DNA from: a virus
Lineage: Duplodnaviria > Caudoviricetes
DNA length: 58,998 bases
IMG/VR virus record: IMGVR_UViG_3300025009_000015
Span: 1-58,998 of that record
Strand: one strand, 5' to 3'
The position numbers were made by a program, and so were the translations under genes. Positions 16,394 to 52,264 of the stretch are shown here, one piece after another; position 1 is the first letter of the stretch; each line of letters opens with the position of its first letter. The notes beneath the pieces were generated by a model. That model had not been told where the DNA came from. It made no database searches and worked only from the letters and a program-made list of their open reading frames with translations.

Positions 16394-16466
16394 ACTATAG
16401 TCAACCCTACCAGAAAGATCAAGATAATAATTCACAGGTAGCAGTTTTTTTCTCGGTGCGTACACT
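16394..16466. promoter_or_regulatory. Divergent promoter unit
   Basis: Minus: GTGAATTATT..TTGATC-N17-TATAGT; plus: TACACT at 16461. Confidence 0.75.
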
Positions 16467-16483
16467 GGAGGCATACGGCAACG

Positions 16484-16738
16484 ATGGAGGCAGCGATGGA
16501 CAGGCGACGGATTGACGGGTTGATGAGCCGCGAGCACGAGCGAATCGACGCGGACCTGGTGCTCGACGCCCTGGTGTGGGCGGAGGGGAACGAAAGCGAG
16601 GCGTCGAGGATTCTCTGCGTGAACAGGAACACCGTGAGGCGGGTGCGCGCGTCGAAGCTCGCGGGCGTGGAGGTTCCTGCCCGGGAGGGGTACGTGTTCC
16701 GGACCCGACCGGAGGGGGGTGCGCCGTGGGTGAGCTGA
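16484..16738 (+). CDS. Fis-family HTH protein
   Basis: ALVWAEGNESEASRILCVNRNTVRR. Confidence 0.75.
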   Translation: MEAAMDRRRIDGLMSREHERIDADLVLDALVWAEGNESEASRILCVNRNTVRRVRASKLAGVEVPAREGYVFRTRPEGGAPWVS

Positions 16739-17025
16739 AATTTTCCTACACGTTTTCGGCCTGGACGAGGACAGGGACGGAGGTCGTCGTCACGGTGGGT
16801 GCCCTGCTCGAGCGTACCGGCAGCGGTGACGTGTGGGACAACGACGGGCTCTCTGCTCGGGCGGTGACACAGGTGCGCAACGTCGTCCGTGCCTTGCCTG
16901 ACGGCAGGACTCCGGAGGACACCATTCTCGCGGTGTGGGACGCCCTGAGTTCCGCAGAGTTCGAGCTCCCCTGTGTCCGTGTGTCCCTCCAAGATAGGCA
17001 GTTGAGGGTGGAGGTGTTCAGGTGA
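16726..17025 (+). CDS. Degenerate QueD/PTPS-like (T-fold) protein
   Basis: KFSYTFSA, VVVTVG, GDVWD, RTPEDTILAVWDAL, VRVSL align by eye to QueD, but the His ligands are absent. Confidence 0.4.
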   Translation: MGELKFSYTFSAWTRTGTEVVVTVGALLERTGSGDVWDNDGLSARAVTQVRNVVRALPDGRTPEDTILAVWDALSSAEFELPCVRVSLQDRQLRVEVFR

Positions 17026-17516
17026 CCAGGGACCGCATCGTGGACATCGTCACAGTCAGGGCTGGGGACCTCGTCCCGAACCCGCGCAACTGGCGGACGC
17101 ACCCGGAGGCGCAGCGCAGGGGGCTCGAGCAGATACTCGACCGGGTCGGGAGTGTCGATGTCCTGAAGGCAGTACGCCTCCCCAGCGGGGAGCTGCAGCT
17201 CGTGGACGGTCACCTCCGGGCGGACATCCGGAGGGACGAGCAGGTCAGGGTCGCTGTGCTCGACCTGACACCTGAGGAGTCCGACCTGGTGCTCGCGACG
17301 TTCGACCCTGTGAGCGCGATGGCGGAGGCGGACCTGGACGTGCTCCGGGGGCTGCTGGACGACGTCAAGATGGAAGTCCCTGCGGATATGATCGAGGCGC
17401 TCGAGGCGTTGATTCGAACGGGAGATCCTGTCGAGCCCAGGAAGTTCGACACAGATGTTGAGGACGAGGTTAAGTACGTCGTCTGCCCGAACTGTGAACA
17501 TAGGTTTCCGAAATGA
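17022..17516 (+). CDS. ParB/Srx N-terminal domain protein with C-terminal Zn ribbon
   Basis: LVPNPRNWRTHP, LVDGHLR, CPNCEHRF. Confidence 0.8.
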   Translation: MTRDRIVDIVTVRAGDLVPNPRNWRTHPEAQRRGLEQILDRVGSVDVLKAVRLPSGELQLVDGHLRADIRRDEQVRVAVLDLTPEESDLVLATFDPVSAMAEADLDVLRGLLDDVKMEVPADMIEALEALIRTGDPVEPRKFDTDVEDEVKYVVCPNCEHRFPK

Positions 17517-17641
17517 AGCCGAGTGTCCCACCAGGAAATTCTCAGATCGTGTCGATCGCACAGGCCGTGAGTGTTCCAGATGGGACTCTCGGGTATATCA
17601 CGGCGTCGAATGAGAGACACACAAGGAGCCTCTTCGATTGA
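17513..17641 (+). CDS. 42-aa ORF homologous to the start of the MTase variable region
   Basis: PSVPPGNSQIVSIAQAV resembles PGVPPGSSRGITFREAV of the downstream MTase. Confidence 0.45.
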   Translation: MKPSVPPGNSQIVSIAQAVSVPDGTLGYITASNERHTRSLFD

Positions 17642-18954
17642 TGTATCAACCTGCCCCTACCATGGTGAAAACCGGTAACAGTAGGATGATGACGGGGAAC
17701 AGGGTAGAGGCGATCTCCCCGATCGAGGCCACGAGGTTCTCCTCCTTTCCAGACCAGTACAAATTCCCAGGACGAGCGTCCGAAGTGATCGAGCGCGTCG
17801 GTAACTCCGTCCCTCCCCTCCTCATGTTTCGCGTCGCTCAGCATATCAAGGAGAACCTCTTCATGCACCAGATCCAGAAGATGACTTCCAGCAGGAGGCC
17901 TTACGTCGAAGTGCTCGACGACCTGTGGACACGACACCTGGCCCAGCGTGAGCCAGACGCGCCGACCGTGGTTTCCCTCTTCGCGGGGGCCGGGGGCTCC
18001 TCCCTGGGGTACTCCGCTGCGGGGTTCAGGGAGCTGCTCGCCGTCGAGTGGGACAAGCACGCGTGCCAGTGCCTGAGACAGAACTTCCCGGGGTTGACTG
18101 TCTACGAGGGGGACATCTCGAAACTCACCACGGAGCGGGCGCTCGAGCTGGCAGGTATCACTCCGGGTGAGCTGGACGTGCTCGACGGCAGTCCACCATG
18201 CCAAAGTTTCAGCACGGCCGGGAAGCGGGACATGAATGATCCGAGGGGGCAACTCTTCCGGGAGTACGTCAGGATGCTTGGCATATTCAGGCCAAAAGTT
18301 TTTGTTATGGAGAATGTCTCAGGGATGGTCAAGGGCAAGATGAAGCTCATCTTCGCCGAGATCCTGCGGACGCTGCGGGGGGCAGGGTACGAGGTCGGGG
18401 CTTGGCTCCTGAACGCGATGCACTACGGCATCCCTCAGAGCAGGGAGCGCATGATCTTCGTGGGGGTCCGGTCGGACCTGGTGGGGGCCGGCCCAGGAGT
18501 ACCCCCGGGATCTAGTAGGGGGATCACGTTTCGGGAAGCAGTAGAAGGGTGTCCTGACGTAGGGGGGAAAGTACTTGGGGAATTTCTCCAGAGGATGGCA
18601 CAGAGTCAGCCGAGGGGGCTCTGGAGTAGTCATCTAGGGATCTGGCGGAGATTAAAGGGGAACGACGCCAGCTGTATGAGCACGAAATGGTGCTCCTGGG
18701 ATGACACCCCGGGAACAGTCACCAAAGAATGGATTTCCCTGTCGGGGATGATTCATCCATGGCGTGAGAGATATCTGTCTGCGGGGGAAGTGAAGAGAAT
18801 AGGGTCCTGGCCGGATCAATATTTCTTTGTGGGGAAATTTGGTGATATAGTCCGGAGGGTAGGAAACTCCGTCCCTCCCCTCCTGATGGACAGGATCTCC
18901 CAGCACGTCCGCAGGGAGATCCTCTCGAAGCTTAAACATCAGGCCCCTTTTTAG
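17641..18954 (+). CDS. DNA cytosine-C5 methyltransferase with extra N-terminal motif IX-X module
   Basis: LFAGAGG, GSPPCQSFS, ENV, QSRER, GNSVPP (twice); ends HQAPF. Confidence 0.95.
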   Translation: MYQPAPTMVKTGNSRMMTGNRVEAISPIEATRFSSFPDQYKFPGRASEVIERVGNSVPPLLMFRVAQHIKENLFMHQIQKMTSSRRPYVEVLDDLWTRHLAQREPDAPTVVSLFAGAGGSSLGYSAAGFRELLAVEWDKHACQCLRQNFPGLTVYEGDISKLTTERALELAGITPGELDVLDGSPPCQSFSTAGKRDMNDPRGQLFREYVRMLGIFRPKVFVMENVSGMVKGKMKLIFAEILRTLRGAGYEVGAWLLNAMHYGIPQSRERMIFVGVRSDLVGAGPGVPPGSSRGITFREAVEGCPDVGGKVLGEFLQRMAQSQPRGLWSSHLGIWRRLKGNDASCMSTKWCSWDDTPGTVTKEWISLSGMIHPWRERYLSAGEVKRIGSWPDQYFFVGKFGDIVRRVGNSVPPLLMDRISQHVRREILSKLKHQAPF

Positions 18955-20628: not shown

Positions 20629-20703
20629 AGTATAATCAGTATAAAAAGGTCAGTCAAGAAAATAATTCACAAAATCGATCTTTTTTTCACGGGTGGCTAT
20701 ACT
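20629..20703. promoter_or_regulatory. Divergent promoter unit
   Basis: Minus: box-TTGACT-N17-TATACT; plus: TATACT at 20698, 6 nt before the terL ATG. Confidence 0.75.
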
Positions 20704-20709: not shown

Positions 20710-22401
20710 ATGCGAGACTCTCAGCAGGCACTCTCCCAGGTACAGATGGCTCGGGCCAGGCGCTCTCCCCTCGTCGACCGGCAGTACCTCTACCACCCCG
20801 ACCGCTACCTCCCCGAGGTGCTCGGGATCACCTCCCGCGTCGGGGGCGGGCAGTTCGTCCGGGACGTCGCCGCGTCGTGGCTCCACATGCACCAGCGGGA
20901 GGCGCACCGGGGGGGTCGACCGTGGCCCCGCAGGGACGACATCCCGGACTGGGACGGCTCGAGCATCATCCCGAACGTGTTCTGCTTACAGGGGTCACAC
21001 AAGTGGGGAAAATCTGTCGAGGTGTCTGGCTTGCTCCTGTGGTCCTACCACGTCTCCAGCAGGATAATGGGGTGCGTCTACGCCCCAAAGATCGACCAGG
21101 CGAGCGCGATAACCTGGAGGTACATCGACGGGTGCCTCGACGGTCGCTGGGGAGGGGATATGTGCAGGCTCAAGTCTGTTCGCCTGGCGCGAGGCGGTGG
21201 CAGCAAGTCTCCCAACTTGACCCTAGGGCTGGACCGGATAGTCAAGACTCAGGCCACGGAGCACGGTGTGAGCGTCCAGGGTGCTCACGAGTCCGTGGGT
21301 GTCCACGTCTTCGAAGAGGCGGAGGGCATCGACGGGAAGGACATCTACGACGCGGTGCTCGGCCTCGTCGCGGACGGCATCAGCCTCTGGTTCCTGTGTG
21401 CGAACCCTGCCTCGAGCAGTTCAGACTTCGCCAAGCTCTCAGGGGACAGGGTCCGCAGGTACGAGCTGAGCGCGTTCGACCACCCGAACGTGTCGACGGG
21501 GGAGGTGGTCGTGCCCGGGGCCGTGACGCGGGAGTGGATCGAGGCGCAGCTCTCCGGGAAGTCAGCCTGGGCCGTGCGGGTGGATGGGCCGGACCCCGAC
21601 CGTGCCGCGTTCGAGCTGCCGTGGCGTGCTGGCGAGTGGTGGGCGCCGCGCCCTCCTTGGTGGTGGCGCGTGTGGGGGACACCCCCACCGACGACCGCTG
21701 CGGACGCTGTTGTCTCCTCTGCCGTGCTCCGGCAGGCGTCGAAGCGAGACGCCGGGGCGATCTTCCAGGCGTCGTCCCCCTCCCGCGCGACGATCGGGGT
21801 GGACTGCGCCAGGGGAGGGGAGGACTCCGGCTGGGTCGCGCGTCGCTGGTGCGGGTGCCTCGAGATGCGCTATCCCATCCACGATAGAAACACGGGGGCT
21901 TACGTCGGCGCGGTCGTCTCCGAGCTGGAGGAGCTGCTCCGGGGCGGGTGCCGAGAGGTGGAGGTCAGGGTCGACGCGGGGGGAGGGTTCGGGGCCTGGG
22001 TGGACGAGCTGCGTTCTTTGGGCTCGGTTTTAGACCTGTTCCCGGACGGTGCTCGGGTGATAGAGTGCCACTTCGGGGGGAGGGCGTACGACCAGGAGAT
22101 CGGGGCGGACTGGGCATCGTGCGCGTACCTGGACGCGGGGGAGGATATCCGTGAGCTGGCCGTTGTGGGCTTCGACCCGGAGCTGGAAGAGGACCTCTGT
22201 TCGCGCAAGGTCCGGTGGGTCGTGCGCTCGGACGGGGATGAGAAGAGGGACGTCCGGCAGCTCGAGCGCAAAGAGGAGTTCAGGCGACGTATCGGCCGGA
22301 GTCCGGACCGGGGGGACGCCGCCGCGCTCGCGTGCGCTCGCTGGCCGCAGGGCAGTTCTAAGGGAGGGGTCGCGGACGCTTATGGTCGGGGGAGGCGTTG
22401 A
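20710..22401 (+). CDS. terL: Terminase large subunit
   Basis: GSHKWGKS, VHVFEEAEG, CANP, IGVDCARGGED, SPDRGDA. Confidence 0.9.
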   Translation: MRDSQQALSQVQMARARRSPLVDRQYLYHPDRYLPEVLGITSRVGGGQFVRDVAASWLHMHQREAHRGGRPWPRRDDIPDWDGSSIIPNVFCLQGSHKWGKSVEVSGLLLWSYHVSSRIMGCVYAPKIDQASAITWRYIDGCLDGRWGGDMCRLKSVRLARGGGSKSPNLTLGLDRIVKTQATEHGVSVQGAHESVGVHVFEEAEGIDGKDIYDAVLGLVADGISLWFLCANPASSSSDFAKLSGDRVRRYELSAFDHPNVSTGEVVVPGAVTREWIEAQLSGKSAWAVRVDGPDPDRAAFELPWRAGEWWAPRPPWWWRVWGTPPPTTAADAVVSSAVLRQASKRDAGAIFQASSPSRATIGVDCARGGEDSGWVARRWCGCLEMRYPIHDRNTGAYVGAVVSELEELLRGGCREVEVRVDAGGGFGAWVDELRSLGSVLDLFPDGARVIECHFGGRAYDQEIGADWASCAYLDAGEDIRELAVVGFDPELEEDLCSRKVRWVVRSDGDEKRDVRQLERKEEFRRRIGRSPDRGDAAALACARWPQGSSKGGVADAYGRGRR

Positions 22402-22595
22402 TTTTCTGCAGTAGCCTCCAGCTCTTGTCTGTTGATCTTTTGCCACTCGCGAAATTCATCAAAATGGGGATTCAGGTAGCGACCTTGTTCGATTTCTGGG
22501 CACGTAGAACAGAGCAATACCTTGAAGCGCAGATCGTTGTCTTTGCTCGAAATCAGAGTGAATCTACAACCGCAAGACTGCCAAAAGGTTCTCAT
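22380..22595 (-). CDS. Small Cys-containing hypothetical protein
   Basis: ATG after AAGGA; overlaps the terL end. Confidence 0.5.
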   Translation of the reverse strand: MRTFWQSCGCRFTLISSKDNDLRFKVLLCSTCPEIEQGRYLNPHFDEFREWQKINRQELEATAENQRLPRP

Positions 22596-22599
22596 CGTT

Positions 22600-22965
22600 T
22601 CATTTCCTTTCGTTGAGTCGAGACTCTACCTCCGCGATGGCCTTGACGCAGGATATCCCGAAGAGCCCTTTTGCGAACTCGAACCCTTCCCACCGCTTCC
22701 CCCCGGGGTCGCAGTCCTTGACGTGCTGCGCGAGGATCCCCTGGAGCTGGTAGAGCGCTGTCTCGTCCGCCGTCTTGCGCGCTTCCTGCCTCGAGGGGAG
22801 GTCTCCGAGCCCGTCGACGGGTCGCAGGCTGTAGCTCGAGTACCAGCACTCGTGACCGTCGTCGTGCCTGACGAGGGCGTCGCACATCTGCTCGGTCAGG
22901 GGTTCCCACTGGATGACTACCCCTTCGCGAGGCTCCATCCAGGGCTTGACTCTGCGTCCTACCAT
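22600..22965 (-). CDS. Hypothetical protein
   Basis: ATG after GGAGG; first gene after a boxed promoter. Confidence 0.65.
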   Translation of the reverse strand: MVGRRVKPWMEPREGVVIQWEPLTEQMCDALVRHDDGHECWYSSYSLRPVDGLGDLPSRQEARKTADETALYQLQGILAQHVKDCDPGGKRWEGFEFAKGLFGISCVKAIAEVESRLNERK

Positions 22966-22992: not shown

Positions 22993-23065
22993 ACTATAAT
23001 CAACCCCACTAGAAAAATCAACAAATAATTCACAGCTCGGAAAAATAATCGAGATAGTCTACACT
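22993..23065. promoter_or_regulatory. Divergent promoter unit
   Basis: Minus: box-TTGATT-N17-TATAGT; plus: TACACT at 23060. Confidence 0.75.
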
Positions 23066-25624: not shown

Positions 25625-25870
25625 CTAGAATGTCGTACGAATCTGGATGTCAAGCTCTTTCAGGGCTTTCTCTGGTGATCTTTCCCACGGACCTTTGATA
25701 GGGTAGTCCAGGGAGTAGTCTCCCCACTCTTCTGCATGGTATAGGAAGGTGATTCCCTCTGGAGATGGGATGCTGTGACCTATTCGAATGATCCTCCGTG
25801 TCTTTGAGACTCTTGCGATATAATCACCAGTACTACAGTTTTTCTCCCATACATAATGCATAGATTCCAC
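25625..25870 (-). CDS. Hypothetical protein
   Basis: 81 aa; lower GC by eye. Confidence 0.55.
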   Translation of the reverse strand: MESMHYVWEKNCSTGDYIARVSKTRRIIRIGHSIPSPEGITFLYHAEEWGDYSLDYPIKGPWERSPEKALKELDIQIRTTF

Positions 25871-25871
25871 C

Positions 25872-26423
25872 TCAGAACGGAGCGTAGGACTCCTGATTTT
25901 TCACTCTCTCCAGGTTCTTGACGTTCACCCGCCCGTGCCGTTTCCCTGTCCCCTTGCACATCCCGCACGTCGGGCGCTCCTCATCCGTGCAGTAGCAGTC
26001 GCTCAGGTACTGGTCCCCTCCCCGGAGTGTGTACCGGTCCCACAGGATCGTCGCCGTGCAGAATGTCTCGTCGCCGGACAACACCTCGACAGTCCCGACG
26101 TCGTCCTGCTCGAGCCCGTGGAAATACTGCCCCGTGTTCCGGAGGAACGTCCCGGAGAGTCGCACGCGGTCGCCTACAGCGATCGATGTCTTCCCCCGGT
26201 GTTTCCTTGTGCCCCCTTGCGCGAACGCGAGACGGGCCTTGGCCTCGACGACGGTAGCGATGTCCTCCGCGCGACGCTCCCCCCGCTCACCCCGTACCAG
26301 GGAGTCGACCATGGTCAGGCGGTCGATCAGGTCTTCGCGGGGGAGGTCTGCCGGGTGGGTGTCCCCCTCTTCCAGCTCTAAGACCCGGAGCGCGGTCAGG
26401 GCTTCAAATATAGAATCGATCAT
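25872..26423 (-). CDS. Hypothetical protein (SH3-like, CxxCxGxG), ends SYAPF
   Basis: AVGDRVRL, CGMCKGTG. Confidence 0.7.
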   Translation of the reverse strand: MIDSIFEALTALRVLELEEGDTHPADLPREDLIDRLTMVDSLVRGERGERRAEDIATVVEAKARLAFAQGGTRKHRGKTSIAVGDRVRLSGTFLRNTGQYFHGLEQDDVGTVEVLSGDETFCTATILWDRYTLRGGDQYLSDCYCTDEERPTCGMCKGTGKRHGRVNVKNLERVKNQESYAPF

Positions 26424-33951: not shown

Positions 33952-33952
33952 G

Positions 33953-38962: not shown

Positions 38963-38965
38963 CAG

Positions 38966-41139: not shown

Positions 41140-41212
41140 ACTATGAGCAATTTTCAGTGAAAATCAACATAATAATTCACCTATCGAAAAATCCTCAGCG
41201 ATCGCGTACACT
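41140..41212. promoter_or_regulatory. Divergent promoter unit
   Basis: Minus: box-TTGATT...CATAGT; plus: TACACT at 41207. Confidence 0.65.
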
Positions 41213-42792: not shown

Positions 42793-43010
42793 TTGCTCGT
42801 ACTGTAAGCAATTGACCGGATTGAATAATTCACTGGAAAAGATCGACAAACTTCCTGATTGACCTAAGTCGATCAAGATCTGGACCCCCTCAAAATCGCT
42901 GTGGGCTCCAAGGCGAGCAAAACGAAGGATGGTCAATAGCAAAGCTCATCTTTTCAAAAAATCGGTTCTAAGGCCTCTGGTAGCTCGCTGGCGACATCGA
43001 ATTTTGGAGG
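42793..43010. repeat. Dispersed non-coding repeat, copy B
   Basis: High similarity to 13785-13962 and 52890-53106. Confidence 0.9.
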
Positions 43011-43987: not shown

Positions 43988-44818
43988 ATGACTGAGCTAT
44001 TCGACCGACGATGCACCCTTCAGATATCGACGAAGACCAGCTCGAGGCAGTGGACCTCCGGGCAGAAAAACGAGCTCGACCTGACGTTCTCGGCCGAGAA
44101 GACGGCGGGAAGCGAGCCGAACCGGTGCGATATCTCCGTCTGGAACCTCTCGGAGGACTCCAGGCGCCTGGTGTCTGACGAGGGCGCGACGGTCAGGCTC
44201 TCGGCCGGGTACGTCGGGACGGAGGCGCTGGTATTCGTCGGCGACGTGGACGACGTCCAAACATCCCGCGACGGTGCGGACGTGCTCTCCCGGATCTCCT
44301 GCTCGGACGGGGGGCTGGCGATCCGGAGCACCGTCGTGAACATCTCGACGAAAAAGGACACTCCCGTCTCGGACCTGGTGGACCAGCTCGTGGGACAGCT
44401 CGGCCTGCCGAAGGGTCCGATCGCGGTCGTCTCCGGGGCGCTGAAACGAGGTTTGGCCGTGCTCGGCCCGGTCCAGAAGGCCCTCGACGAGCTGTGCAGC
44501 TCGAACGGTCTCCGGTGGTCGGTGCAGGACGGGGCCGTACAGGTACACCCTGTCACGGGCACGCCAGACGCGGTGGTCGTGCTTTCCCAGGACACCGGGC
44601 TCGTGGGGATACCAGAGCGCCTGGTCCAGCGTGACCAGAAGGGGGGGGTCGAACGCCGGGGCGTCAAGTGCAGGTCGCTCCTCCAGCCCGGGCTGAACCC
44701 CGGCCGGAGAATCCGGGTAAAATCAGAGTGGGTGTCTGGGGATTTCGTCGTCGAGCGGGTGGGGCACTCGGGGAGCACGGTCGGGGGGGAGTGGTACACG
44801 GACGTCGAGGCCTACTGA
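43988..44818 (+). CDS. Baseplate hub protein
   Basis: PNRCDISVWNLS, LSAGY, WSVQDG, LSQDTGLVGIP, LLQPGL. Confidence 0.85.
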   Translation: MTELFDRRCTLQISTKTSSRQWTSGQKNELDLTFSAEKTAGSEPNRCDISVWNLSEDSRRLVSDEGATVRLSAGYVGTEALVFVGDVDDVQTSRDGADVLSRISCSDGGLAIRSTVVNISTKKDTPVSDLVDQLVGQLGLPKGPIAVVSGALKRGLAVLGPVQKALDELCSSNGLRWSVQDGAVQVHPVTGTPDAVVVLSQDTGLVGIPERLVQRDQKGGVERRGVKCRSLLQPGLNPGRRIRVKSEWVSGDFVVERVGHSGSTVGGEWYTDVEAY

Positions 44819-45247
44819 TCAGTTGTCGAACCAGAACACCATGCGGACATCCTCTACCGTAGATGGATAATCCTCAGGATACCGCTTGACGTCGTACCCA
44901 TTCCCGAAAAGATATCCAAAAACACTGAACACATAACAGAGATCTGCTTCAGGATCCTTTATACGCGCTTCTCGTTCGTACCAATCCTGCACGTCCGAGA
45001 GTTCTTTTCCTGTGATCCAGGACAGATGATGCCAGTCTTCAACCCCCCTGTTATAGTCCATGTTGGTCAGTAATGACATATTGTCAGGTATCCCTCGTAA
45101 AGGGTATTGCTGATCACCTGGTTTGTCTGTTCTCACGCCAGCGAGTCGTGCGAACAGTGAGTAGTTGCGGGGAATGTTTAACGCCATCCAGTGATGCCAT
45201 TCCCCAGAAACTTTTACTTCGATATGCGCATGAATGTCACAACCCAT
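44819..45247 (-). CDS. Conserved phage hypothetical protein (MGCDIH...FWFDN)
   Basis: RNYSLFARLAGVR, RGIP, HHLSW. Confidence 0.8.
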   Translation of the reverse strand: MGCDIHAHIEVKVSGEWHHWMALNIPRNYSLFARLAGVRTDKPGDQQYPLRGIPDNMSLLTNMDYNRGVEDWHHLSWITGKELSDVQDWYEREARIKDPEADLCYVFSVFGYLFGNGYDVKRYPEDYPSTVEDVRMVFWFDN

Positions 45248-45277
45248 TTTCGTTCTCCTCAATTTCTGTGAGCGCTA

Positions 45278-45805
45278 CTAATTTCCGGGGATACACGCAT
45301 CACAATCGCAGTCCGGATGGGAAGCATTTTGTTGTCGACGCTCGAGCTCAGCCTCGAGCTGCTCCGTCGTGAACCCTGCCAGTGCAGCGATCATCGGATC
45401 GATTGCCGGAGTCAGAGACGCCAGCGCCAGAGTCTGAACCCACGGAACGCAATCGAGTCGGGCCTGGACCTGATCCAGGAAGCTCGGGGAGCAGTGGTCG
45501 AAGCTCATAGAGGTTCCAAGATTCCCGTCACCCTGGAGTGAACTCTCGACCTGAAAACAATCGTACGTCCTCATCTGACTCTTCGCGCTTCCTGCAGGGG
45601 CGCAACAGACCACCACAGAACCGGCCGGGACCTCCTGCTCACCCTCGTTCAGGAACTCGCCCTGAAGGGCGTACCCGTTTTTCTGCGACCGGTCGATCCC
45701 GGTCACGATCTTCAGCCAGCCGACCCGACGCCCCGACCCTGTCGGCTTCGTGAAAGTCCTTCGAATCATCGCCACACCGTTTCGCTCTACAATTTTCAGG
45801 TCCAT
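45278..45805 (-). CDS. Hypothetical protein
   Basis: 175 aa; NGYALQGEF; C-terminal HPDCDCDAC. Confidence 0.7.
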   Translation of the reverse strand: MDLKIVERNGVAMIRRTFTKPTGSGRRVGWLKIVTGIDRSQKNGYALQGEFLNEGEQEVPAGSVVVCCAPAGSAKSQMRTYDCFQVESSLQGDGNLGTSMSFDHCSPSFLDQVQARLDCVPWVQTLALASLTPAIDPMIAALAGFTTEQLEAELERRQQNASHPDCDCDACIPGN

Positions 45806-45834
45806 GATTTTCTCCGAATTCGTTGTGTTAGATT

Positions 45835-46203
45835 TCAGTCCTTATCCAAATCGATTGCGATTTCAAGTTCGTGTAACCACTCAGCTTTTGCGGAGGCCTT
45901 GAAAGACTCAATTACGTTGATCAACGCAGAGCTGGAGCGCGATTCCCATGGGCGATCGTCGATAAGGTCTCTTCTGAGACGGATCACGTTTTTGCGCGTT
46001 GCAGAGGCCAACCCTTCGTCGGCGATATCGCGACGAAGACACATGGCCAAAGAACCCCTCTGCTCGTCCTTGACGGCTTTCTCGGATTCCCACCCAAGAA
46101 TTATGGCAACGCCACCGTTTTGCACGGCTGTCACGAAGGCTTCGCGGGTTACCTTGGCTTGCGAAATCGTGTGAAGGATCAAAATCTCAACGTTGCTGGC
46201 CAT
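45835..46203 (-). CDS. Hypothetical protein
   Basis: ATG after GGAG; first gene after a boxed promoter. Confidence 0.7.
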   Translation of the reverse strand: MASNVEILILHTISQAKVTREAFVTAVQNGGVAIILGWESEKAVKDEQRGSLAMCLRRDIADEGLASATRKNVIRLRRDLIDDRPWESRSSSALINVIESFKASAKAEWLHELEIAIDLDKD

Positions 46204-46209: not shown

Positions 46210-46355
46210 TCTCCAAGTTCGTGTTTCAATGTCTCAATCTCAGTATGTATCTACTATAAGCTACCCCTAGATCAGAATCAAGAAAATAATTCACACATCA
46301 CAAAAATAATTCACAGCTCGGAAAATCTCGGCAGGTAGTCTACAGTACAGCCATG
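46210..46355. promoter_or_regulatory. Divergent promoter unit with doubled box (repeat of 52119-52264)
   Basis: Minus TTGATT-N17-TATAGT; two AATAATTCAC boxes 20 nt apart; plus TACAGT-N6-ATG. Confidence 0.8.
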
Positions 46356-47054
46356 GACGAGCAGGGGACACGGACTCTCACGAGCGCAGTAGCCACCGCG
46401 ATCGACGCGGCGCTGCTCGAGGTGCGCACGGCGACGCCGGCGAGGATCGAGTCCTACTCGGCATCCGACCAGCGGGCCGTCGTCCTCCCCCTCCTGAAGC
46501 GGCGGACGAAAGTCGGGGCCGTGCTCGTCCCGAACCCGATCGGGAACGTCCCGGTTCTGTTCCCCCGGGCCGGGGGATACGCGATCACCTTCCCGGTCGC
46601 CTCCGGGGACACGGGGCTCCTGATCTGCTCGGACCGGTCCCTCGACCTCTGGCTCGAGTCCGGGGGGCAGGTGGATCCGCAGAGCGGTCGCCATCACGAG
46701 ATGGGCGACGCCGTGTTCCTCCCCGGACTCCACGCCTGGGGGGACGCGATACCAGGGGCCAGTACGTCAGACATGGTCCTGATGCGGGAGGACGGCTCAG
46801 CCCTGGTCCAGATCGGGTCGGGGCTCGTGGAGATAGGCGCCCACCCTGCTGCGTCGTGGATCGCCCGTGCAGACTTCACGGACGCGCGGATTACCTCGCT
46901 ACAGGCAAAGCTCGACTCATTGATCGCGAAGTACGACCTACACACGCACCTAGGGGTGCTACCTGGTCCGGCAGTCACAGCTCCCCCGCTCCCCACAGAG
47001 ATTGTGCTCGGGCCTCTGGCGACCGTCGCAGCCACGATTGGGAAGGTGACATGA
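46353..47054 (+). CDS. Baseplate spike (Gp138/gp5 N-terminal type)
   Basis: VPVLFPRAGG, GDTGLLICSDRSLD, RHHEMGDAVF, HTH iron-binding tip motif. Confidence 0.85.
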   Translation: MDEQGTRTLTSAVATAIDAALLEVRTATPARIESYSASDQRAVVLPLLKRRTKVGAVLVPNPIGNVPVLFPRAGGYAITFPVASGDTGLLICSDRSLDLWLESGGQVDPQSGRHHEMGDAVFLPGLHAWGDAIPGASTSDMVLMREDGSALVQIGSGLVEIGAHPAASWIARADFTDARITSLQAKLDSLIAKYDLHTHLGVLPGPAVTAPPLPTEIVLGPLATVAATIGKVT

Positions 47055-48271
47055 GCGTAACCAGCGACGCGGCGGCGACCGCGATCACGAACGCGATCAA
47101 TGCGATGGCCCCGGCCGACGTCCAGAGCCTGCTGAAAGTTATGAAGGCGTGGATGGCTCAAGAGGAGCCGTACTGGGCGGCAGGCGGGGGGTCTCAGCCG
47201 ATCATCATCCGGCCGGACACGATTACACCGGGAACCCGTCACGAAATTGTGGACGGGTGGCTGGGGCTTCGCTATCGCACAGGTTTTTACGAGTCGCGAA
47301 ACATCCTGCTGGCGGACGGTGCCGAGTATGGTTGGAACGTCATCAACAGTGCCAACGTCGCAAGCGCCAACGAGAACACCAGTAATCCCGGGCAGGTGAC
47401 GATCAATCCTACGGGAGGCGCCGCGAAGGACTGGTATCCTGCGACATACACGGCACCGAAGCGCACAAAGCTGTTTCCCTGCAACCAGAAGACTCAGTTT
47501 ATCACAGCTCGACTCGCGACGAACTGCGCGGCGGTGGGTGATGTTTCCGGGATCATGATCCATGGTATTGCAGACACTGGTAAATTCATTCGTTCATTTT
47601 TTCAGCGTTCGGGTGCCAACGTCCTTTGTGGGACGCAAAACAACGCAGGCGTGACGGGGCCGATGCTGACTGTGACTCCTGCGACGGCGGCTAATGGCGT
47701 CTGGTTTCGAATCATGATCGACTCCCGGGGGTACGTGTGGGGGTGGCAGAACGCGACGTTCAGTGCAACCCCACCTATCGGTGGATGGACGCTCGGAGTT
47801 TCGAATCAGGGCACAGGCGGGCTACCAGATATCACAGGCATGTCCGCAGGCTACTACTGCGGCAACAGCGCCGGGGGCACAAACCAACTCCGGGTGCTAT
47901 ACTACGATGACCGAGGCATGGGCACGCCAATTGACGGAGAGACTTACCCGACGTGGGGCGCGGGCTATGATATCGCGTCCACGGCTATTCAGATTCTCGA
48001 CGTTGACGATGCAGGCGCATCGTCGAACACGGAAATCAAAGCACTGTTTACCGGGCTGGCGGCCAAGGCGGGAAGCACAGCAACTCTCCAAGTAAGCGGA
48101 AAGCGTTCCGGTGGCGCCGGTTCGGCGTTCGTCACTTGGTCGACTCCGGCAGCATGGGCGGGCGTAGACGGCGCAGGTGATTGGCTCCGTTTGGGGCTCC
48201 GGTGGGTGTCAGACGGGACGCAGCCGGGCAACGTGTTTCTCGGGTCGGGCGTGACTCTGCGGACATCATAG
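47051..48271 (+). CDS. Putative tail fibre/receptor-binding protein
   Basis: G/T/A/W-rich beta protein in the baseplate cluster; different codon usage. Confidence 0.5.
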   Translation: MSVTSDAAATAITNAINAMAPADVQSLLKVMKAWMAQEEPYWAAGGGSQPIIIRPDTITPGTRHEIVDGWLGLRYRTGFYESRNILLADGAEYGWNVINSANVASANENTSNPGQVTINPTGGAAKDWYPATYTAPKRTKLFPCNQKTQFITARLATNCAAVGDVSGIMIHGIADTGKFIRSFFQRSGANVLCGTQNNAGVTGPMLTVTPATAANGVWFRIMIDSRGYVWGWQNATFSATPPIGGWTLGVSNQGTGGLPDITGMSAGYYCGNSAGGTNQLRVLYYDDRGMGTPIDGETYPTWGAGYDIASTAIQILDVDDAGASSNTEIKALFTGLAAKAGSTATLQVSGKRSGGAGSAFVTWSTPAAWAGVDGAGDWLRLGLRWVSDGTQPGNVFLGSGVTLRTS

Positions 48272-48280: not shown

Positions 48281-48646
48281 GTGGCGCTACAGCTCACATC
48301 GACAGGGGACCTCCAGCGGACGCTCGGGACGTTCGTCAGACTGGACGAGGTCTCGGACAGGGACGAGTGCATCGGGCAGCGGATATCTATTCGTCTCAGG
48401 AGGTGGCTCGGGGAGTGGGACTACGACACCAGGCTGGGTATGCCTTGGAGCACACTGCTCACGAAGGGCACAACGGAGGGGCAGCTCAGGGCCGCGATCG
48501 TGCGGGAGGTGACCAGGGTGCCTGGGGTGCGCGCGGTCGCGTCCCTGACGACGTCGGTCGTCAACCGGGCTGTGACTGTGACGGGGAGGGTGTCTGTGGT
48601 CGGGAGCTCGGAGCTGGTTACGTTCGGGGCGCAGGTGGAGATCTGA
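48281..48646 (+). CDS. Baseplate wedge (gp25/gp46-like)
   Basis: QRISIRLRRWLGEW..DTRLGMPW, VPGVRAV. Confidence 0.8.
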   Translation: MALQLTSTGDLQRTLGTFVRLDEVSDRDECIGQRISIRLRRWLGEWDYDTRLGMPWSTLLTKGTTEGQLRAAIVREVTRVPGVRAVASLTTSVVNRAVTVTGRVSVVGSSELVTFGAQVEI

Positions 48647-48649
48647 CAC

Positions 48650-50056
48650 CTATTTATGGAGCACCACGTAAACGGTGTTGATCCGCGTCCCGGACGACGC
48701 GAACGACTCCATGGGGAGATCCCGGAACGGAGACCCGTAGCAGTCGCTGTGCTTCTTCGCCCACGCACGGAAAGTGTCGTGCGCCTTGCTCTCCCCGAAC
48801 TCGACGGTGGCGGGGAGGATGGCGACCAGCTTCCCCCCGGGGCGCAGGAACTCGAACCCCAGCAGAACGTGTTGCATGTAGAGAGTCCCGTGGAACGGGG
48901 GGTTCATGACGACGTGGGAGTACGCGGGGACGGGAATCATTCGCAGGAAGTTAGCGTGTAGGACGGTCAGTCGCTTGTGCGCGCGAGACAGCTCTTGCAG
49001 CACCAGGACCCTCCCCGCGTCTACCTCCACGGCGTCGACTCCCGCCCCCGTCTTGAGCAGGTGGCGGACGATGTTCCCCGTACCTGCTGACGGTTCGAGT
49101 ACCCGACTCCCCTCGTTGATGTACAGGTCAGACAACAACTTTTCGACCACTGCTTCGGGCGTCGGGTAGAACCCCAGGTCTTTGCAGAGTACCGTAGAGC
49201 GCTCTCGGATGTCCTTGTCTGTCACGTCCGCCGGGACGCCGTCCGGAAGCACCTCCCCGTAATAGTCTGCGAGCACACCGTTCGCTTTCCCGACCAGGTC
49301 GTCTCGGGTGAACCAGAGATGCGCGTTCCCGTTCATGTACGTGCGGATCCGGAAATACTCCGACTCTGTGCAGGACTGCCGGGGGTTGAGGTTCCGTCCG
49401 CGCCCCTCGTCGATGGCGTTGATCAGCCCGCGGGGGTCGGGCTTGTTCCCGTCCAGGACGGCGAACACCCGCTCGACGTCGCAGATCGTGTCCCTCATGC
49501 TGTAGTGGCCCCAGTTCCCCCGCTCGTTGAAGACGTTGGTCAAGATGATTCTCGCCCCGATCTTGAAGGCGTCGTGGCTCCGGAACCTCCTGTCCAAGTC
49601 GATGAAAGCACGGGCCAGCCCTCGCTGAAAGATCAGGTAGGCGTCCTTCCGCAGGCCATCGAACGTCGCGTAGATCGTGTCCTCCGACACCTCCGGTACG
49701 TCGTTGCAGAGCTGATCGTACAGCTCATCTTTGGCGGTCCTGTCCATCATGTGCTCCATGCCGGTCAGGCACAGGAGGTTCATCCACACCCTGGCGTCGA
49801 CCTGCTGGCGGTACGCCTCGAAGCTCTTCTCTGGGTCGATCCCTTCGAAGAGCCTCTTGTACGCCTCCGACCTGCTGCGGTCGGACAGCGTGAACGTCGC
49901 CGCCCCGTGAGCCTGCTGCGCGTGCCGGTAGGACTGCTCGGCCAAGGCTTGGCCCTGTACCATGGCTGCCACGGCATCGCGCATCATGGTCATGGCTGCG
50001 TCCCGGTGAGCGCACACCTCGGTCACGGTCGTTCGGGGGATAAGGGCTGTCTCCAT
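48650..50056 (-). CDS. DUF4942 plus N6-adenine-type methyltransferase
   Basis: FYPTP, LEPSAGTG, MNPPF, FASSGTRINT; N-terminal FQRG..., NGNAHLWF. Confidence 0.85.
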   Translation of the reverse strand: METALIPRTTVTEVCAHRDAAMTMMRDAVAAMVQGQALAEQSYRHAQQAHGAATFTLSDRSRSEAYKRLFEGIDPEKSFEAYRQQVDARVWMNLLCLTGMEHMMDRTAKDELYDQLCNDVPEVSEDTIYATFDGLRKDAYLIFQRGLARAFIDLDRRFRSHDAFKIGARIILTNVFNERGNWGHYSMRDTICDVERVFAVLDGNKPDPRGLINAIDEGRGRNLNPRQSCTESEYFRIRTYMNGNAHLWFTRDDLVGKANGVLADYYGEVLPDGVPADVTDKDIRERSTVLCKDLGFYPTPEAVVEKLLSDLYINEGSRVLEPSAGTGNIVRHLLKTGAGVDAVEVDAGRVLVLQELSRAHKRLTVLHANFLRMIPVPAYSHVVMNPPFHGTLYMQHVLLGFEFLRPGGKLVAILPATVEFGESKAHDTFRAWAKKHSDCYGSPFRDLPMESFASSGTRINTVYVVLHK

Positions 50057-50091: not shown

Positions 50092-50165
50092 ACTATAATC
50101 AACCCGCACGGAAAGATCAACATAATAATTCACAGCTCGGAAAATCTCAGCAGGTAGACTACACT
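50092..50165. promoter_or_regulatory. Divergent promoter unit
   Basis: Minus: box-TTGATC-N17-TATAGT; plus: TACACT at 50160. Confidence 0.8.
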
Positions 50166-50218: not shown

Positions 50219-50695
50219 ATGTCAGTGCTCCGTATCGTCGGTATCGGCCAATTAGGACACCTAATCCCGGGTACGATCGCGAATACATCCGAGGGGGGTC
50301 TCGTGATCCTGGTCCACAAACTACCAGGCAGCATCACACGACGGGGGCTGGTCTGCCGGGCGTCCACCAACATACCTCTGTCGTGGGAGATATCTCAGGC
50401 CTCAGAGAGATCGATGCTTGGTGTGATTTATGAGGACGACGAGAATCCAGACCTGACGTGGATAGTGATTTCCGGTATCGCTCAGGTACTCCTGCAGGAT
50501 GGGACGGCTGCAGCGCCAGGAAATTGGGTGAAAACATCCGACTCACAGCCTGGTCACGCAAACGCTACGACAGTCACCCCTCCAGACGGGACGATGCCAA
50601 AAATCTCTGAGCGTTTGCGGGAGCTCGGGTACTGCCTCGAGAGTAAAACCGCAGGGATAGATGTGTTGTGCTCCTGTCTCGTGAGCGCACATTAG
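50219..50695 (+). CDS. Cement-like (DUF2190-like) protein
   Basis: LGVIYE, WIVISGIAQVL, GNWV, LGYCLES. Confidence 0.5.
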   Translation: MSVLRIVGIGQLGHLIPGTIANTSEGGLVILVHKLPGSITRRGLVCRASTNIPLSWEISQASERSMLGVIYEDDENPDLTWIVISGIAQVLLQDGTAAAPGNWVKTSDSQPGHANATTVTPPDGTMPKISERLRELGYCLESKTAGIDVLCSCLVSAH

Positions 50696-50707
50696 AGAGG
50701 ATTTTCT

Positions 50708-51910
50708 GTGGGTACACTGACGACGACAGGGTATGCGAAAGCGTCCGCAGCGGACTGGTTGACGGCGCTCCGGGCAGACTGGATCTCCGAGTTCGGGGTG
50801 GGGACGGATGTCTCAGACGACTCCCCGGACGGGGTGCTCCTCCGGATTTTCGCTCAGTACCTGGCCGAGCAGGACGAGGCGATCGAGGCCGTCTACCAAG
50901 CCATCGACCCCGACTCCGCCGCGGGGGTCGCGCTCGAGAATGTCTGCTCGCTACTAGGGCTCTCCCGGAACGCGGCGACGTATTCCACTATCTCCTCCCC
51001 GGGCGTCACGCTCTCAGGCGTCGCCGGGACGAACGTCGCAGGGGGGACGCGGTTCTCGGTCAGCGCGACAGGGGTCCAGTTCAGCCTCGACGCCCTAGCA
51101 GTCATCGGTGGAGGCGGGACCGTGACCTGCGGGGTTACTGCTGTCTTGACCGGCCCAGGCGCCGCGGGGGTCGGAGCGCTCGACACGATCGACACTCCTG
51201 TCGCCGGCCTGACCGGGGTGACGAACACGGTCGCCGCGGTGCTCGGGACGGACCAGGAGTCTGACGAGGGGTTCCGCTCGAGGCGGGAGGCCTCCCTGTC
51301 CGCGACGGGGCGCGGGACGGTCGATTCCCTCTACGCTCGCCTGGCGGACCTTGACGGGGTGACGTCGGTAAAAGTGATCGAGAACTCGACAGACGGGGTG
51401 GTCGCGGGGCAGGACGCCCACTCCGTCCAATGCGTCGTCTACGGCGGGACGGCTCAAGATATCGTGGACGAGATCTGGTTGTCAAAGCCCGCGGGGATCG
51501 CGACGTACGGGACCAGCTCGGGCACAGCGGTCGACGCGGCGGGGGACAACCACACGGTTGAGTACACCGTCCCCGCGCTCGTCACCGTCCACATCCGGAC
51601 CACCATCACGACCGACTCGACGTACCCGATCGACGGAGACGCCCAGGTGAAGCAGCAGATCCTGCTGGCTCTGGCCCAAGGGCTGACCGAGCTCGAGGTG
51701 CTTCAGGGGACTGTGACGACGGGGCAGGGGTTGGTCGGGGAGGATGTGATCAGCGGGAAGATCGTCAAGGCGATCTACACTGTGCAGGGGGTCCTGACGC
51801 ACACCGGGCCGCTCGTCGACACGGTAGACCCCCCGGTCGCGACCGGGAACCTCTCGATGAGTGACGCCCAAGTCGCGAGTTACGCGATCGCGAACATGGA
51901 CGTACTCTAA
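50708..51910 (+). CDS. Baseplate J/gp47 protein
   Basis: SPDG, DPDSAAGVAL, GTDQESDEGFRSRR, HSVQCVVYGG, KPAGIATYG. Confidence 0.9.
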   Translation: MGTLTTTGYAKASAADWLTALRADWISEFGVGTDVSDDSPDGVLLRIFAQYLAEQDEAIEAVYQAIDPDSAAGVALENVCSLLGLSRNAATYSTISSPGVTLSGVAGTNVAGGTRFSVSATGVQFSLDALAVIGGGGTVTCGVTAVLTGPGAAGVGALDTIDTPVAGLTGVTNTVAAVLGTDQESDEGFRSRREASLSATGRGTVDSLYARLADLDGVTSVKVIENSTDGVVAGQDAHSVQCVVYGGTAQDIVDEIWLSKPAGIATYGTSSGTAVDAAGDNHTVEYTVPALVTVHIRTTITTDSTYPIDGDAQVKQQILLALAQGLTELEVLQGTVTTGQGLVGEDVISGKIVKAIYTVQGVLTHTGPLVDTVDPPVATGNLSMSDAQVASYAIANMDVL

Positions 51911-52110
51911 ATCCATTCGACCCTGAAGCCGCCAGTGGCCAAAGGAAATGCGTACCCGAGCACCTGAGCGCCAACAGGCAGCTCCGACTCGTGCTCGACG
52001 CTACCACTACCTGGTCGAGAAAAGTCCACATGCTGCGACCAGAGAATCGAACGACGAGTCGTGAAAGGTTCGTAACGCTCTTCGTCTTTAAGGTTCATTT
52101 TTTCAATCAT
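51907..52110 (-). CDS. Small hypothetical protein
   Basis: Single-gene cassette behind a boxed promoter; RBS GGAG. Confidence 0.6.
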   Translation of the reverse strand: MIEKMNLKDEERYEPFTTRRSILWSQHVDFSRPGSGSVEHESELPVGAQVLGYAFPLATGGFRVEWI

Positions 52111-52118
52111 GGTCGTTC

Positions 52119-52264
52119 TCTCCAAGTTCGTGTTTCTCAATCTCAATCTCAATCTGTATCTACTATAAGCTATCCACGATTCAGAGTCAAGAAAATAATT
52201 CACAAAACCTAAAAATAATTCACAGCTCGAAAAAATCTCCCGGGTAGTCTACAGTACAGCCATG
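52119..52264. promoter_or_regulatory. Divergent promoter unit with doubled box (repeat of 46210-46355)
   Basis: Minus TTGACT-N17-TATAGT; two boxes; plus TACAGT-N6-ATG. Confidence 0.8.

Follow-up and report, generated by a model that had tools for sequence, protein, structure and literature searches.

Analysis of the virus record IMGVR_UViG_3300025009_000015 revealed a repeated unit that is probably a portable back-to-back promoter cassette, in which a predicted leftward promoter (P_L) and a predicted rightward promoter (P_R) have one upstream site in common and which flanks variable accessory genes lying antisense within the virion gene array. The window, i.e. the whole stretch of DNA analysed, is the entire IMG/VR record of 58,998 bp from an uncultivated groundwater phage. 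It has direct terminal repeats (positions 1–127 are identical to 58872–58998, 127 bp) and a GC content of about 62%, and is a complete metagenomic myophage. Its contractile-tail virion genes comprise those of the head (portal, Mu-F-like, a homologue of the head-maturation protease [DUF2213, phrog_530], cement, and a PF09950 capsid protein) and those for neck proteins, sheath, tube, tape measure, Dit-like, hub, and baseplate J proteins. The replication genes encode a family A polymerase, a helicase, a PD-(D/E)XK nuclease, a DUF5906 primase-helicase, a clamp-like protein, and a single-stranded DNA-binding (SSB)-like protein. Several DNA methyltransferases and one CHAP lysin were also found.

The upstream site is a short box. 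Its core AATTCAC occurs 25 times in the window (20 copies on the plus strand and 5 on the minus strand) against 3.34 expected, and none of 100 shuffles reached 25. The 10-mer AAWAATTCAC is invariant, being kept in 13 of 13 copies of P_L. The slightly relaxed AAWAATTCAY has 23 copies against 0.10 expected, 20 of them on the plus strand (binomial 0.0005, with the reservation that 13 belong to leftward promoters), and only one lies inside a called gene, though 89% of the genome is coding. The box is asymmetric; no inverted partner was found near the 10-mer and it forms no dyad. Its TTCAC part does not vary in any of the 13 P_L copies, which is stricter than the −35 hexamer itself. Eight 10-mers lie outside the arrangement of P_L and P_R: four within the three copies of a second conserved element (E2, described below), one in reverse orientation between the head-protease gene and the cement gene, one in the AT-rich region 11951–12531, one at the end of an HTH_23/terminase-small-like gene, and one inside the primase gene. 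Such copies, and the fact that TTCAC contains G/C and does not vary, speak for a site that is recognised specifically and against a UP element of the generic A/T-rich kind. Judged from this distribution, the box behaves as a stand-alone element.

A preliminary description of this DNA had placed the end of AATTCAC at a fixed 26–28 nt before a plus-strand TA(C/T)A(C/G)T. All seven pairs and their distances proved exact, i.e. 26 nt (16435/16461), 28 nt (20670/20698), and 27 nt in five cases (23033/23060, 41180/41207, 46314/46341, 50133/50160, and 52223/52250). In an eighth case, a plus-strand box is followed at a distance of 27 nt by TATTCT (39617/39644), which fits TANNNT but not TA(C/T)A(C/G)T. 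The motif TA[CT]A[CG]T has 31 plus-strand occurrences in the window, and simple arithmetic gives about 0.03 matches expected in 60 positions (20 boxes × 3 offsets), against seven seen. However, the box copies are members of a repeat family (paralogous) and not independent trials, so that "conserved module" is the proper statement. Better evidence that the spacing is probably constrained comes from copies 16429, 20664, 39611, and 41174, in which the 26–28 nt distance is kept despite unrelated spacer sequences, and from a module of a relative (L126, see below), in which a distance of 27 nt is kept (box end 1761, TACACT 1788). The sequence CAGCTCG(G/A)AAAA, said to be frequent in the gap between box and hexamer, was found there in four of the eight copies (23027, 46308, 50127, and 52217).

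P_L was identified in 13 copies, composed of TTGAYY, a spacer of 16–18 nt, and TATAGT or a variant of one or two bases. Read on the minus strand, the order is GTGAATT, 5–7 nt of A/T, TTGAYY, 16–18 nt, TATAGT, and then a conserved start region, AGATACAGG. Each hexamer has 4–5 of six matches to the consensus, so that all 13 copies have the features of a sigma-70/sigmaA-type promoter (at least four of six matches in both hexamers and a spacer of 16–18 nt). A general promoter scan flagged 8 of the 13, with promoter-like sites numbering 8 against 2.2 expected and 11 against 3.4 expected. In the copies listed, the putative P_L start lies 0–45 nt 5′ of the minus-strand start codon.

P_R was identified in eight modules, with the hexamer TACACT, TACAGT, TATACT, or TATTCT, often followed by GCGACCAGGAG. 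The gap had been described as having no recognisable −35. The element there is indeed weak, but a −35-like TCGNNN (TCGGAA, TCGAAA, TCGACG, or TCGATC) stands exactly 17 nt, the canonical spacing, 5′ of the P_R hexamer in seven of the eight copies. These hexamers have 3–4 of six matches to TTGACA, and five of six (TCGACA) in L126. Over both hexamers, P_R reaches 7–8 of 12 consensus matches as compared with 9–10 of 12 for P_L. P_R has no TG extended −10.

The two promoters are arranged symmetrically about the box. Three bases separate the 10-mer from the weak rightward −35, and three bases separate it from the leftward −35. In promoters with 17-nt spacers the 10-mer spans about −48 to −39 on both sides, with its centre near −43.5. 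The predicted starts are 86–88 bp apart in the six single-box modules and 107 bp apart in two double-box modules (46.3 kb and 52.2 kb), in which a second box lies 20 nt on and each promoter has its own box at the standard distance. The idea of a bidirectional box is retained in this form: a putative leftward promoter of sigma-70 type and a putative rightward promoter with a weak core have one box in common, and the arrangement recurs at divergent junctions. Of the five genes that lack a Shine-Dalgarno sequence, four have a −10-like hexamer that is separated from the ATG by exactly 6 nt. They are the gene behind P_L 9346 (TATGTT), the gene at 12532 (TTGACA/18 nt/CATACT, here and below given as −35/spacer/−10), and the genes behind the P_R hexamers at 46341 and 52250 (TACAGT in both; ATG at 46353 and 52262). 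This 6-nt geometry is that of leaderless mRNAs and, as read from the sequence, is common to all three promoter kinds.

The first of the eight complete modules, 16429, occupies 16394–16466. Its P_L has the −10 TATAGT at 16394–16399 and the −35 TTGATC at 16417–16422 on the minus strand, the box is at 16426–16435, and P_R TACACT follows at 16461–16466, 26 nt past the box. Module 20664 (20629–20703) lies 5′ of the large terminase gene (20746), with P_L TTGACT/17/TATACT, the box at 20661–20670, and P_R TCGATC/17/TATACT at 20698–20703. The portal gene (23089) is preceded by module 23027 (22993–23065), with P_L TTGATT/17/TATAGT, the box at 23024–23033, and P_R TCGGAA/17/TACACT at 23060–23065. Module 39611 (39577–39649), located 5′ of the tail assembly chaperone gene (39723), contains P_L TTGATT/16/TATAGT, the box at 39608–39617, and P_R TCGACG/17/TATTCT at 39644–39649. 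Upstream of the tape measure gene (41233), module 41174 (41140–41212) contains P_L TTGATT/16/CATAGT, the box at 41171–41180, and P_R TCGAAA/17/TACACT at 41207–41212. Module 50127 (50092–50165) has P_L TTGATC/17/TATAGT, the box at 50124–50133, and P_R TCGGAA/17/TACACT at 50160–50165, then GCGACCAGGAG, and lies 5′ of gene 50219 and the baseplate J gene (50708). The first double-box module (46253–46346) shows P_L TTGATT/17/TATAGT with its box at 46285–46294, a second box at 46305–46314, and P_R TCGGAA/17/TACAGT at 46341–46346, followed after 6 nt by ATG 46353 in leaderless geometry. The second (52162–52255) is a paralogue of the first (82% over 151 nt), with the P_L box at 52194–52203, box 2 at 52214–52223, and P_R TACAGT at 52250–52255, 6 nt before ATG 52262.

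Five further copies, all on the minus strand, have P_L and a box without P_R. The one at 29122–29163 (TTGACG/18/TATATT; box 29154–29163) lies 5′ of the cassette with the clamp-like gene and a helix-turn-helix (HTH) gene of the XRE family. A unique perfect 17-bp palindrome, ATATACACAGTGTATAT, at 29123–29139 overlaps the −10 of this P_L (29157). It may be an autoregulatory operator, the cassette behind this promoter encoding the XRE-family HTH protein (27162–27464). The copy at 9311–9352 (TTGACT/17/TATGTT; box 9343–9352) is followed after 6 nt by ATG 9304, again in leaderless geometry. The other three were found at 3734–3776 inside the leftward replication arm (TTGCTT/18/TACAGT; box 3767–3776), at 8326–8368 inside the leftward arm (TTGATC/17/TATGGT; box 8359–8368), and at 58832–58872 at the edge of the 127-bp terminal repeat (TTGACT/16/TATAGA; box 58863–58872). 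In these three modules, the box (GTGAATT, minus strand) contains the TGA stop of the gene before it, at 3773–3775, 8365–8367, and 58869–58871, and at the terminal-repeat edge it is the end of the polymerase gene that falls within the box.

P_L is present at all 10 divergent junctions and at three sites within the leftward arm. P_R is present at 8 of the 10 junctions and always stands 5′ of the first plus-strand gene of a unit. Seven of the eight P_R units consist of virion or packaging genes, led by the large terminase, the portal, the tail assembly chaperone, the tape measure, a PF18352 baseplate-spike-type protein, an orphan followed by baseplate J, and a baseplate protein, respectively. The eighth (16484–18954) is non-structural and encodes a small protein with a Fis-type HTH match (below the cut-off), a ParB-like protein, and a C5 methylase. 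The P_L units contain the replication arm, three methyltransferase-like genes, clamp-like, XRE HTH, and Lar-like genes, a phrog_624 match, and many orphans.

Seven cassettes on the minus strand were found within the virion array. The one in the terminase/portal gap (22380–22965) has open reading frames (ORFs) of 121 and 71 aa, where the relative L123 has a plus-strand ORF of 224 aa instead. The largest (25625–29071) encodes the clamp-like protein (536 aa), the XRE HTH protein (101 aa), a Lar-like protein (64 aa), and orphans. Two orphan genes occupy 38795–39541, with a stop that overlaps the stop of the tail tube gene. At 40376–41108, there is a 177-aa match to phrog_624 ("DNA binding protein") and an AT-richer orphan. 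The cassette at 44819–46203 has three orphan genes (GC 0.53), that at 48650–50056 a DUF4942 methyltransferase of 468 aa, and that at 51907–52110 a 67-aa orphan, absent from L126. The GC of the seven is 0.53–0.63, as compared with 0.63–0.69 in the late units, and some terminal segments have 0.46–0.48. No paralogy was found among the small AT-rich ORFs of the cassettes.

Convergent stop codons are −22 to +3 nt apart at seven cassette boundaries. At five places the ends of convergent virion and accessory genes are −4 to +3 nt apart (18951–18954, 38795–38798, 44818–44819, 48646–48650, and 51907–51910). Terminator-like hairpins were not enriched (12 against 11.0 expected and 9 against 10.9 expected), and one lies in a module (41213–41196). 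Because the gene ends abut and terminators are not enriched, opposing transcripts should run into neighbouring genes. The clamp-like protein (27461–29071) has 536 aa, as compared with about 370–420 in its nearest clusters, and the extra segment weakly matches a RusA-like PHROG.

Comparison with relatives was made on two fragments, L123 and L126. L123 (7 kb) has a portal 83% identical to that of the window and shows synteny with it over the terminase, portal, and Mu-F genes and the clamp cassette. Its terminase/portal insert is different, and contains a plus-strand 224-aa ORF (1489–2163) with a signal-peptide/lipobox-like N-terminus and no Pfam family, which may be a late-expressed moron. L126, a 3.2-kb fragment with about 74% nucleotide identity, spans the baseplate region. 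In its module B, which precedes baseplate J, P_L, the box (as AATTCAT), TCGACA, the spacing of 27 nt, and TACACTGCGACCAGGAG, with the same 19-mer as in L123, are retained, while the spacers are rewritten; in the cassette an unrelated 71-aa ORF takes the place of the 468-aa methyltransferase, and gene 50219 is missing. Both P_L-linked boxes of L126 have the same C-to-T variant. L126 has no cassette or module corresponding to that at 52.2 kb, and the stop of its baseplate J gene overlaps the next ATG. At that junction the window has a 351-nt insert (51911–52261), which ends in TACAGT, 6 nt, and then the ATG. Cassette content differs at all three comparable sites (terminase/portal, wedge/baseplate J, and baseplate J/next gene). 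Metagenome contigs of relatives diverge exactly at the cassette border 44818. Where DNA contigs from four metagenome runs have other letters than the window, the 40 positions listed of 180 fall at 40273 and 47234–48049, and none in the modules.

The modules have been homogenised within genomes. Modules A and B of L126 match each other best, with 0.65 identity as compared with 0.62 and 0.56 to their orthologous sites in the window, and modules 50127 and 16429 of the window have 0.83 identity. That modules are more alike within one genome than at orthologous sites of different genomes suggests gene conversion or repeated redeployment of a single cassette. A portable promoter cassette would account for the placement at junctions, the precise 351-nt insert, the differing contents at conserved modules, and this homogenisation.

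Several observations weigh against such a reading. Promoter activity, start sites, early or late timing, and factor binding are predicted here. All promoter calls rest on consensus and position, and the gene coordinates come from our own codon-bias calls and not from a standard caller. The switch had been placed at every cassette boundary, but P_R is missing at two of the 10 junctions (9346 and 29157). The latter precedes the largest virion (head-tail) unit, 29196–38798, before which no rightward promoter was found. Four P_R copies (23027, 46308, 50127, and 52217) are 67–81% identical over 64 nt, and part of the apparent conservation of P_R is therefore recent duplication or gene conversion. 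In L123, the exact 19-mer P_R core TCTACACTGCGACCAGGAG lies 8 nt after the terminase stop, with TGGACG 17 nt upstream, and has neither box nor P_L; the box is therefore not obligatory for the core there. Module A of L126, before the spike gene, has P_L and two boxes 22 nt apart, but its box 2 and ATG are closer together by 22 nt, and TACAGT is changed to CACGCT. The distance of this CACGCT to the ATG remains 6 nt and that to box 1 has become 27 nt, a post hoc finding that is suggestive only. If −10-only promoters are the norm in the host, P_R would need no activator. Finally, the split of functions by direction stands for the rightward units (seven of eight virion or packaging) and for the non-structural leftward units, with one exception, the CHAP endolysin gene (8365–8784), which sits in a leftward unit. 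A CHAP endolysin is usually a late function, and leftward is thus not simply early.

With these points taken into account, we still favour the promoter cassette. P_L, of sigma-70/sigmaA type, would drive variable accessory or replication genes antisense within the virion array, and P_R, with its weak core, would restart transcription of the virion genes beyond each inserted cassette. The 10-mer is most likely a protein site at the usual upstream-activator position on both promoters, recognised by a factor of the phage or the host or by the alpha C-terminal domain of RNA polymerase, and the weak P_R would depend more than P_L on the protein bound there. Temporal switching would come more probably from promoter class, i.e. 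a strong or weak −35, than from occupancy of the box alone. The likelihoods that we give to this reading and to those below refer to explanations that are not mutually exclusive in all parts.

One alternative, which we regard as possible but on the unlikely side, is that the A/T-rich 10-mer and its flanks are a UP-type element for the alpha C-terminal domain. Timing would then come from promoter competition or from a protein that remodels sigma region 4, as do P23-45 gp39 and T4 AsiA, disabling the −35-dependent P_L and sparing P_R. The box is A/T-rich and stands where a proximal UP subsite would (about −48 to −37), and GTGAATTATTTT presumably resembles the distal-subsite consensus (Estrem et al. 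1998). P_L and P_R do differ mainly in the quality of the −35 hexamer, and a strong boxless leftward promoter exists (TTGATT/17/TATAAT, 9484–9456), so that the box is not needed for a good core. On the other hand, TTCAC, which contains G/C, is the same in all 13 copies, unlike degenerate UP elements, and eight 10-mers lie outside promoters, against 0.1 expected in total. The accessible part of the work on gp39 describes inhibition of −10/−35 promoters, with middle and late phage promoters lacking a −35 being spared (PMC3950348). A genome-wide shut-off of −35-dependent promoters with −35-poor promoters spared would be a possible likeness to the present phage. However, as described there, gp39 needs no DNA box and the resistant promoters have an extended −10 with TG, which P_R lacks. 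No AsiA- or gp39-like protein was recognised in our family scans, although this is weak evidence.

The preliminary description had gone further and proposed that one phage factor binding the box shuts the leftward early promoter and activates the rightward late promoter everywhere at once. We consider it rather unlikely that a single phage DNA-binding protein represses P_L and activates P_R in every module at the same time, in the way of p4 (with p6) at A2b/A2c and A3 of phi29. Most phage switch proteins bind dyads, but this box is asymmetric, has no dyad partner, and occurs eight times away from promoter pairs. Moreover, at about −48 to −39 the box is 5′ of an intact −35 and clear of the −35, the −10, and the start of P_L. 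Repression does not follow from this position, because the box is upstream of the −35 and not over the core, and it would need an unusual mechanism, e.g. holding of the polymerase. The boxless P_R core in L123 and the two junctions without P_R point the same way. A one-factor switch would fit the invariant box common to both promoters at the same upstream position, the weaker P_R core, and the division of functions by direction, and the C-to-T change shared by the P_L-linked boxes of L126 could mean co-evolution with such a factor. Candidate HTH regulators are also encoded: the XRE protein (HTH_31, 27162–27464, E 6.8e-7, above the Pfam cut-off), the 84-aa protein at 16484 (Fis-type HTH, E 8e-5, below the cut-off), the phrog_624 "DNA binding protein" match, and the HTH_23 protein. 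A PDB sequence search with three candidate regulators gave nothing credible (E at least 0.099 for two and no match for the third), and single-sequence AlphaFold models were unusable, with predicted local distance difference test (pLDDT) values of 42.5 and 33.3. As far as the accessible part of the phi29 report goes, it provides a precedent for activation and repression at once (PMC3100819). Still less likely in our estimation is a more specific form, in which the 10-mer would be the site of a phage-encoded system that redirects the polymerase from about −44 of both promoters. Its occupancy would flip the direction of transcription at eight junctions simultaneously and, since the convergent units have abutting or overlapping gene ends and no terminators between them, would also swap early transcription antisense over virion genes for late transcription antisense over accessory genes. 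This would amount to an early/late switch across the whole genome, based on direction and borne by portable cassettes.

It is very unlikely that the rightward motif is not a promoter at all, with TACACTGCGACCAGGAG being a conserved leader and a ribosome-binding or RNA-processing signal on a recombining repeat and the virion genes being reached by read-through. The conservation does run 11 nt past the hexamer into AGGAG, but in module 50127 this AGGAG is not the ribosome-binding site, as the gene starts 43 nt on with its own. Read-through is conceivable given the convergent ends (−22 to +3 nt at seven boundaries) and the lack of hairpin enrichment, yet transcription would have to pass through 0.2–3.4 kb of cassette in the antisense direction, with strong promoters facing it. 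The motif is missing before the largest virion unit, and in L123 the 19-mer comes directly after the terminase stop in a co-oriented array, where a new promoter would be superfluous. Against this, two TACAGT copies are leaderless, with 6 nt to the ATG, as in two independent canonical promoters, and the distances to the box and to the TCG hexamer are kept where the spacers differ. Other candidates were rejected: a CRP-like half-site (TGTGA) has no second half-site here, the IHF and Fis consensus sequences do not fit the box, and no gene or spacing matches a sigma-54, extracytoplasmic function (ECF) sigma, or T7-like polymerase promoter.

Repeated promoter units beside variable genes have been described before. 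In T4-type phages, promoter-early stem-loop (PeSL) cassettes are repeated strong early promoters that flank variable genes and mediate modular exchange, according to the accessible parts of the sources (Arbiol et al. 2010, PMC2839356; Comeau et al. 2014, PMC4122927). As in the PeSL cassettes described there, the present phage has many near-identical sigma-70-like promoter units beside small variable or non-essential genes, and indels and replacements between related phages fall at the units (at three sites here), which appear to be points of recombination. Unlike PeSL, which is a promoter plus a terminator stem-loop and unidirectional in these descriptions, the unit here is bidirectional, without an enriched stem-loop, has an extra invariant 10-mer, and lies inside the virion array with its cassettes antisense. 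By this comparison, the unit is closest in role to the PeSL cassettes, and in layout it resembles the A2c/A2b–A3 region of phi29.

The p4 sites of phi29 are inverted repeats that lie further upstream and overlap an early promoter. There is one such region in phi29 as compared with ten here, and the box here is an asymmetric single 10-mer at about −44. No p4 or p6 homologue was detected in the window. In the accessible part of the phi29 work, p4 with p6 at A2c, A2b, and A3 brings about simultaneous activation and repression from one intergenic region (PMC3100819). What is alike is that early and late promoters diverge from a short intergenic region, that the late promoter has a poor −35, and that a single bound protein could serve both directions.

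The preliminary description had also compared P_R with the Mu C and P2 Ogr late promoters, in which an activator site replaces the −35. The sites of Mor, C, and Ogr are dyads, and the MotA box replaces the −35 at −30. A Mu C/Mor or P2 Ogr activator site is expected around −43 to −55, and the position of the box fits this. The site here is asymmetric, lies 5′ of a weak −35 that is retained, and doubles for an opposing strong promoter. Furthermore, no homologue of the Mor/C, Ogr/Delta, or MotA activators was found in the Pfam scans of the window proteins (63 proteins at E≤1e-3 and 37 small or unknown proteins at E≤0.5), and on these tests P_R is not assigned to the Mu C/P2 Ogr type. The likeness to Mu C/Mor, P2 Ogr, and T4 MotA/AsiA (PMC4461284, as far as accessible) is limited to a weak or absent −35 and a site centred at −30 to −55. 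The virion module of the window belongs distantly to the E217/Pbunavirus type. For the Pseudomonas phages 14-1 (Pbunavirus) and YuA, which have no RNA polymerase of their own, 5′-end mapping gave two promoter classes, sigma-70-like promoters and a phage-specific motif near the start that is inactive without further factors, in the part of the report available (bioRxiv 10.1101/2023.10.13.562163). The two classes are alike to those proposed here, but the motif of 14-1 has a CTGGG core as compared with TACACTGCG here, and the accessible part describes neither a paired back-to-back layout nor a shared box. No integrase or immunity system was seen in the window. The stoperators of L5 and Bxb1 and the conserved inverted repeats of phiC31 are short sites with about 20–30 copies, intergenic and strongly oriented, in temperate phages with an immunity repressor. 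The 10-mer is similarly repeated and oriented (20 of 23 on one strand), but it is located upstream of promoters and not in transcribed leaders. No published description of this motif or arrangement was found in the open-access literature searched for it. Among the matches listed there, those to the strings AATAATTCAC, GTGAATTATT, and TACACTGCGACC were primers or unrelated sequences, and nothing comparable turned up for bidirectional promoters in phage structural regions.

Database searches returned few relatives. A megablast search of GenBank phages with 24 kb of the window gave no match, and tblastn with the major capsid protein gave distant matches only (≤27% identity). An IMG/VR scan with the portal as a single protein also gave no match. 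With a portal alignment as the query, L123 was the sole match in IMG/VR, the JGI metagenomes gave only L124 (the same contig as L123) and L125, a 38% relative, and 185,579 species genomes gave none. Sheath homologues were found in Logan/ENA sources only. In DNA-pattern scans of IMG/VR, a 23-mer covering the box and CAGCTCG had 0 matches. The 17-mer TCAANAWAATAATTCAC had at least 114 loci; the 80 listed are all single matches, each in another contig, and were therefore taken as chance. The pattern TACACTGCGNNCAGGAG had 16 loci, of which only two are related, those in the contigs of L123 and L126; a tblastx comparison of six further GC-rich loci (L129 among them) with the window gave no match. 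A Rfam scan of the window gave nothing beyond the tRNA. Host inference from the clamp and the CHAP lysin (Atlas) was uninformative, and an "Acidobacteriota" cluster is a lead only.

The second conserved element, E2, has three non-coding copies of about 210–260 nt that are 75–84% identical (13751–13962, 42788–42999, and 52885–53096). Each follows a plus-strand gene and has a 5′ hairpin with a 7-bp stem (AATTGCT...AGCAATT), then one or two 10-mers. A 24-mer of E2 had 0 matches in the IMG/VR scan, and Rfam gave no match. The fold of the E2 alignment is weak (−25.9 kcal/mol, 4 of 52 pairs compensated). A structured RNA was considered for E2 and rejected, the plus-strand single-fold z-scores being inconsistent (−0.2, −0.9, and −3.6).

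Some other features of the genome were noted. The region 11951–12531 is a 581-nt AT-rich gap between the primase-helicase and VRR-NUC genes, with the short direct repeats GATCTATC and CTAGATCTG and several promoter-like sites, and looks like a replication origin or an iteron region. TTGACA/18/CATACT stands at the right end of the gap, 6 nt before ATG 12532, in leaderless geometry. At 9375–9484 on the minus strand, just upstream of P_L 9346, there is a strong boxless promoter (TTGATT/17/TATAAT, −35 at 9479–9484), followed about 40 nt on by a GC-rich hairpin and a U-run. The hairpin folds with −24.8 kcal/mol (z −2.7), and this region may be an attenuator or encode a small RNA about 65 nt long. 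A plus-strand orphan gene of 406 aa (47051–48268), absent from L126, is the only place with dense substitutions (47234–48049) and replaced segments in metagenome contigs, and may encode a virion protein that recognises the host or evolves fast for another reason. The gene for the 648-aa PD-(D/E)XK/HhH nuclease contains a 12-nt tandem repeat in eleven copies at 6610–6784, which encode an acidic, proline-containing low-complexity stretch with a weak Pfam PARP-repeat match.

If the modules work as read here, the phage accepts many foreign accessory genes inside its virion operon with late expression kept, because each insert would bring its own outward restart promoter and, in two cases, would place the next gene on a leaderless mRNA. 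The unit joins two known kinds of arrangement, repeated regulatory cassettes and divergent early/late promoter pairs, in a new form. The PeSL idea of mobile regulatory cassettes would then be extended to a bidirectional unit in a lineage far from T4. If the box is a shared switch, this would be a multi-copy version of the early/late switch of phi29. The invariant 10-mer could also reveal a new transcription factor or polymerase-appropriation system in this uncultivated phage group.

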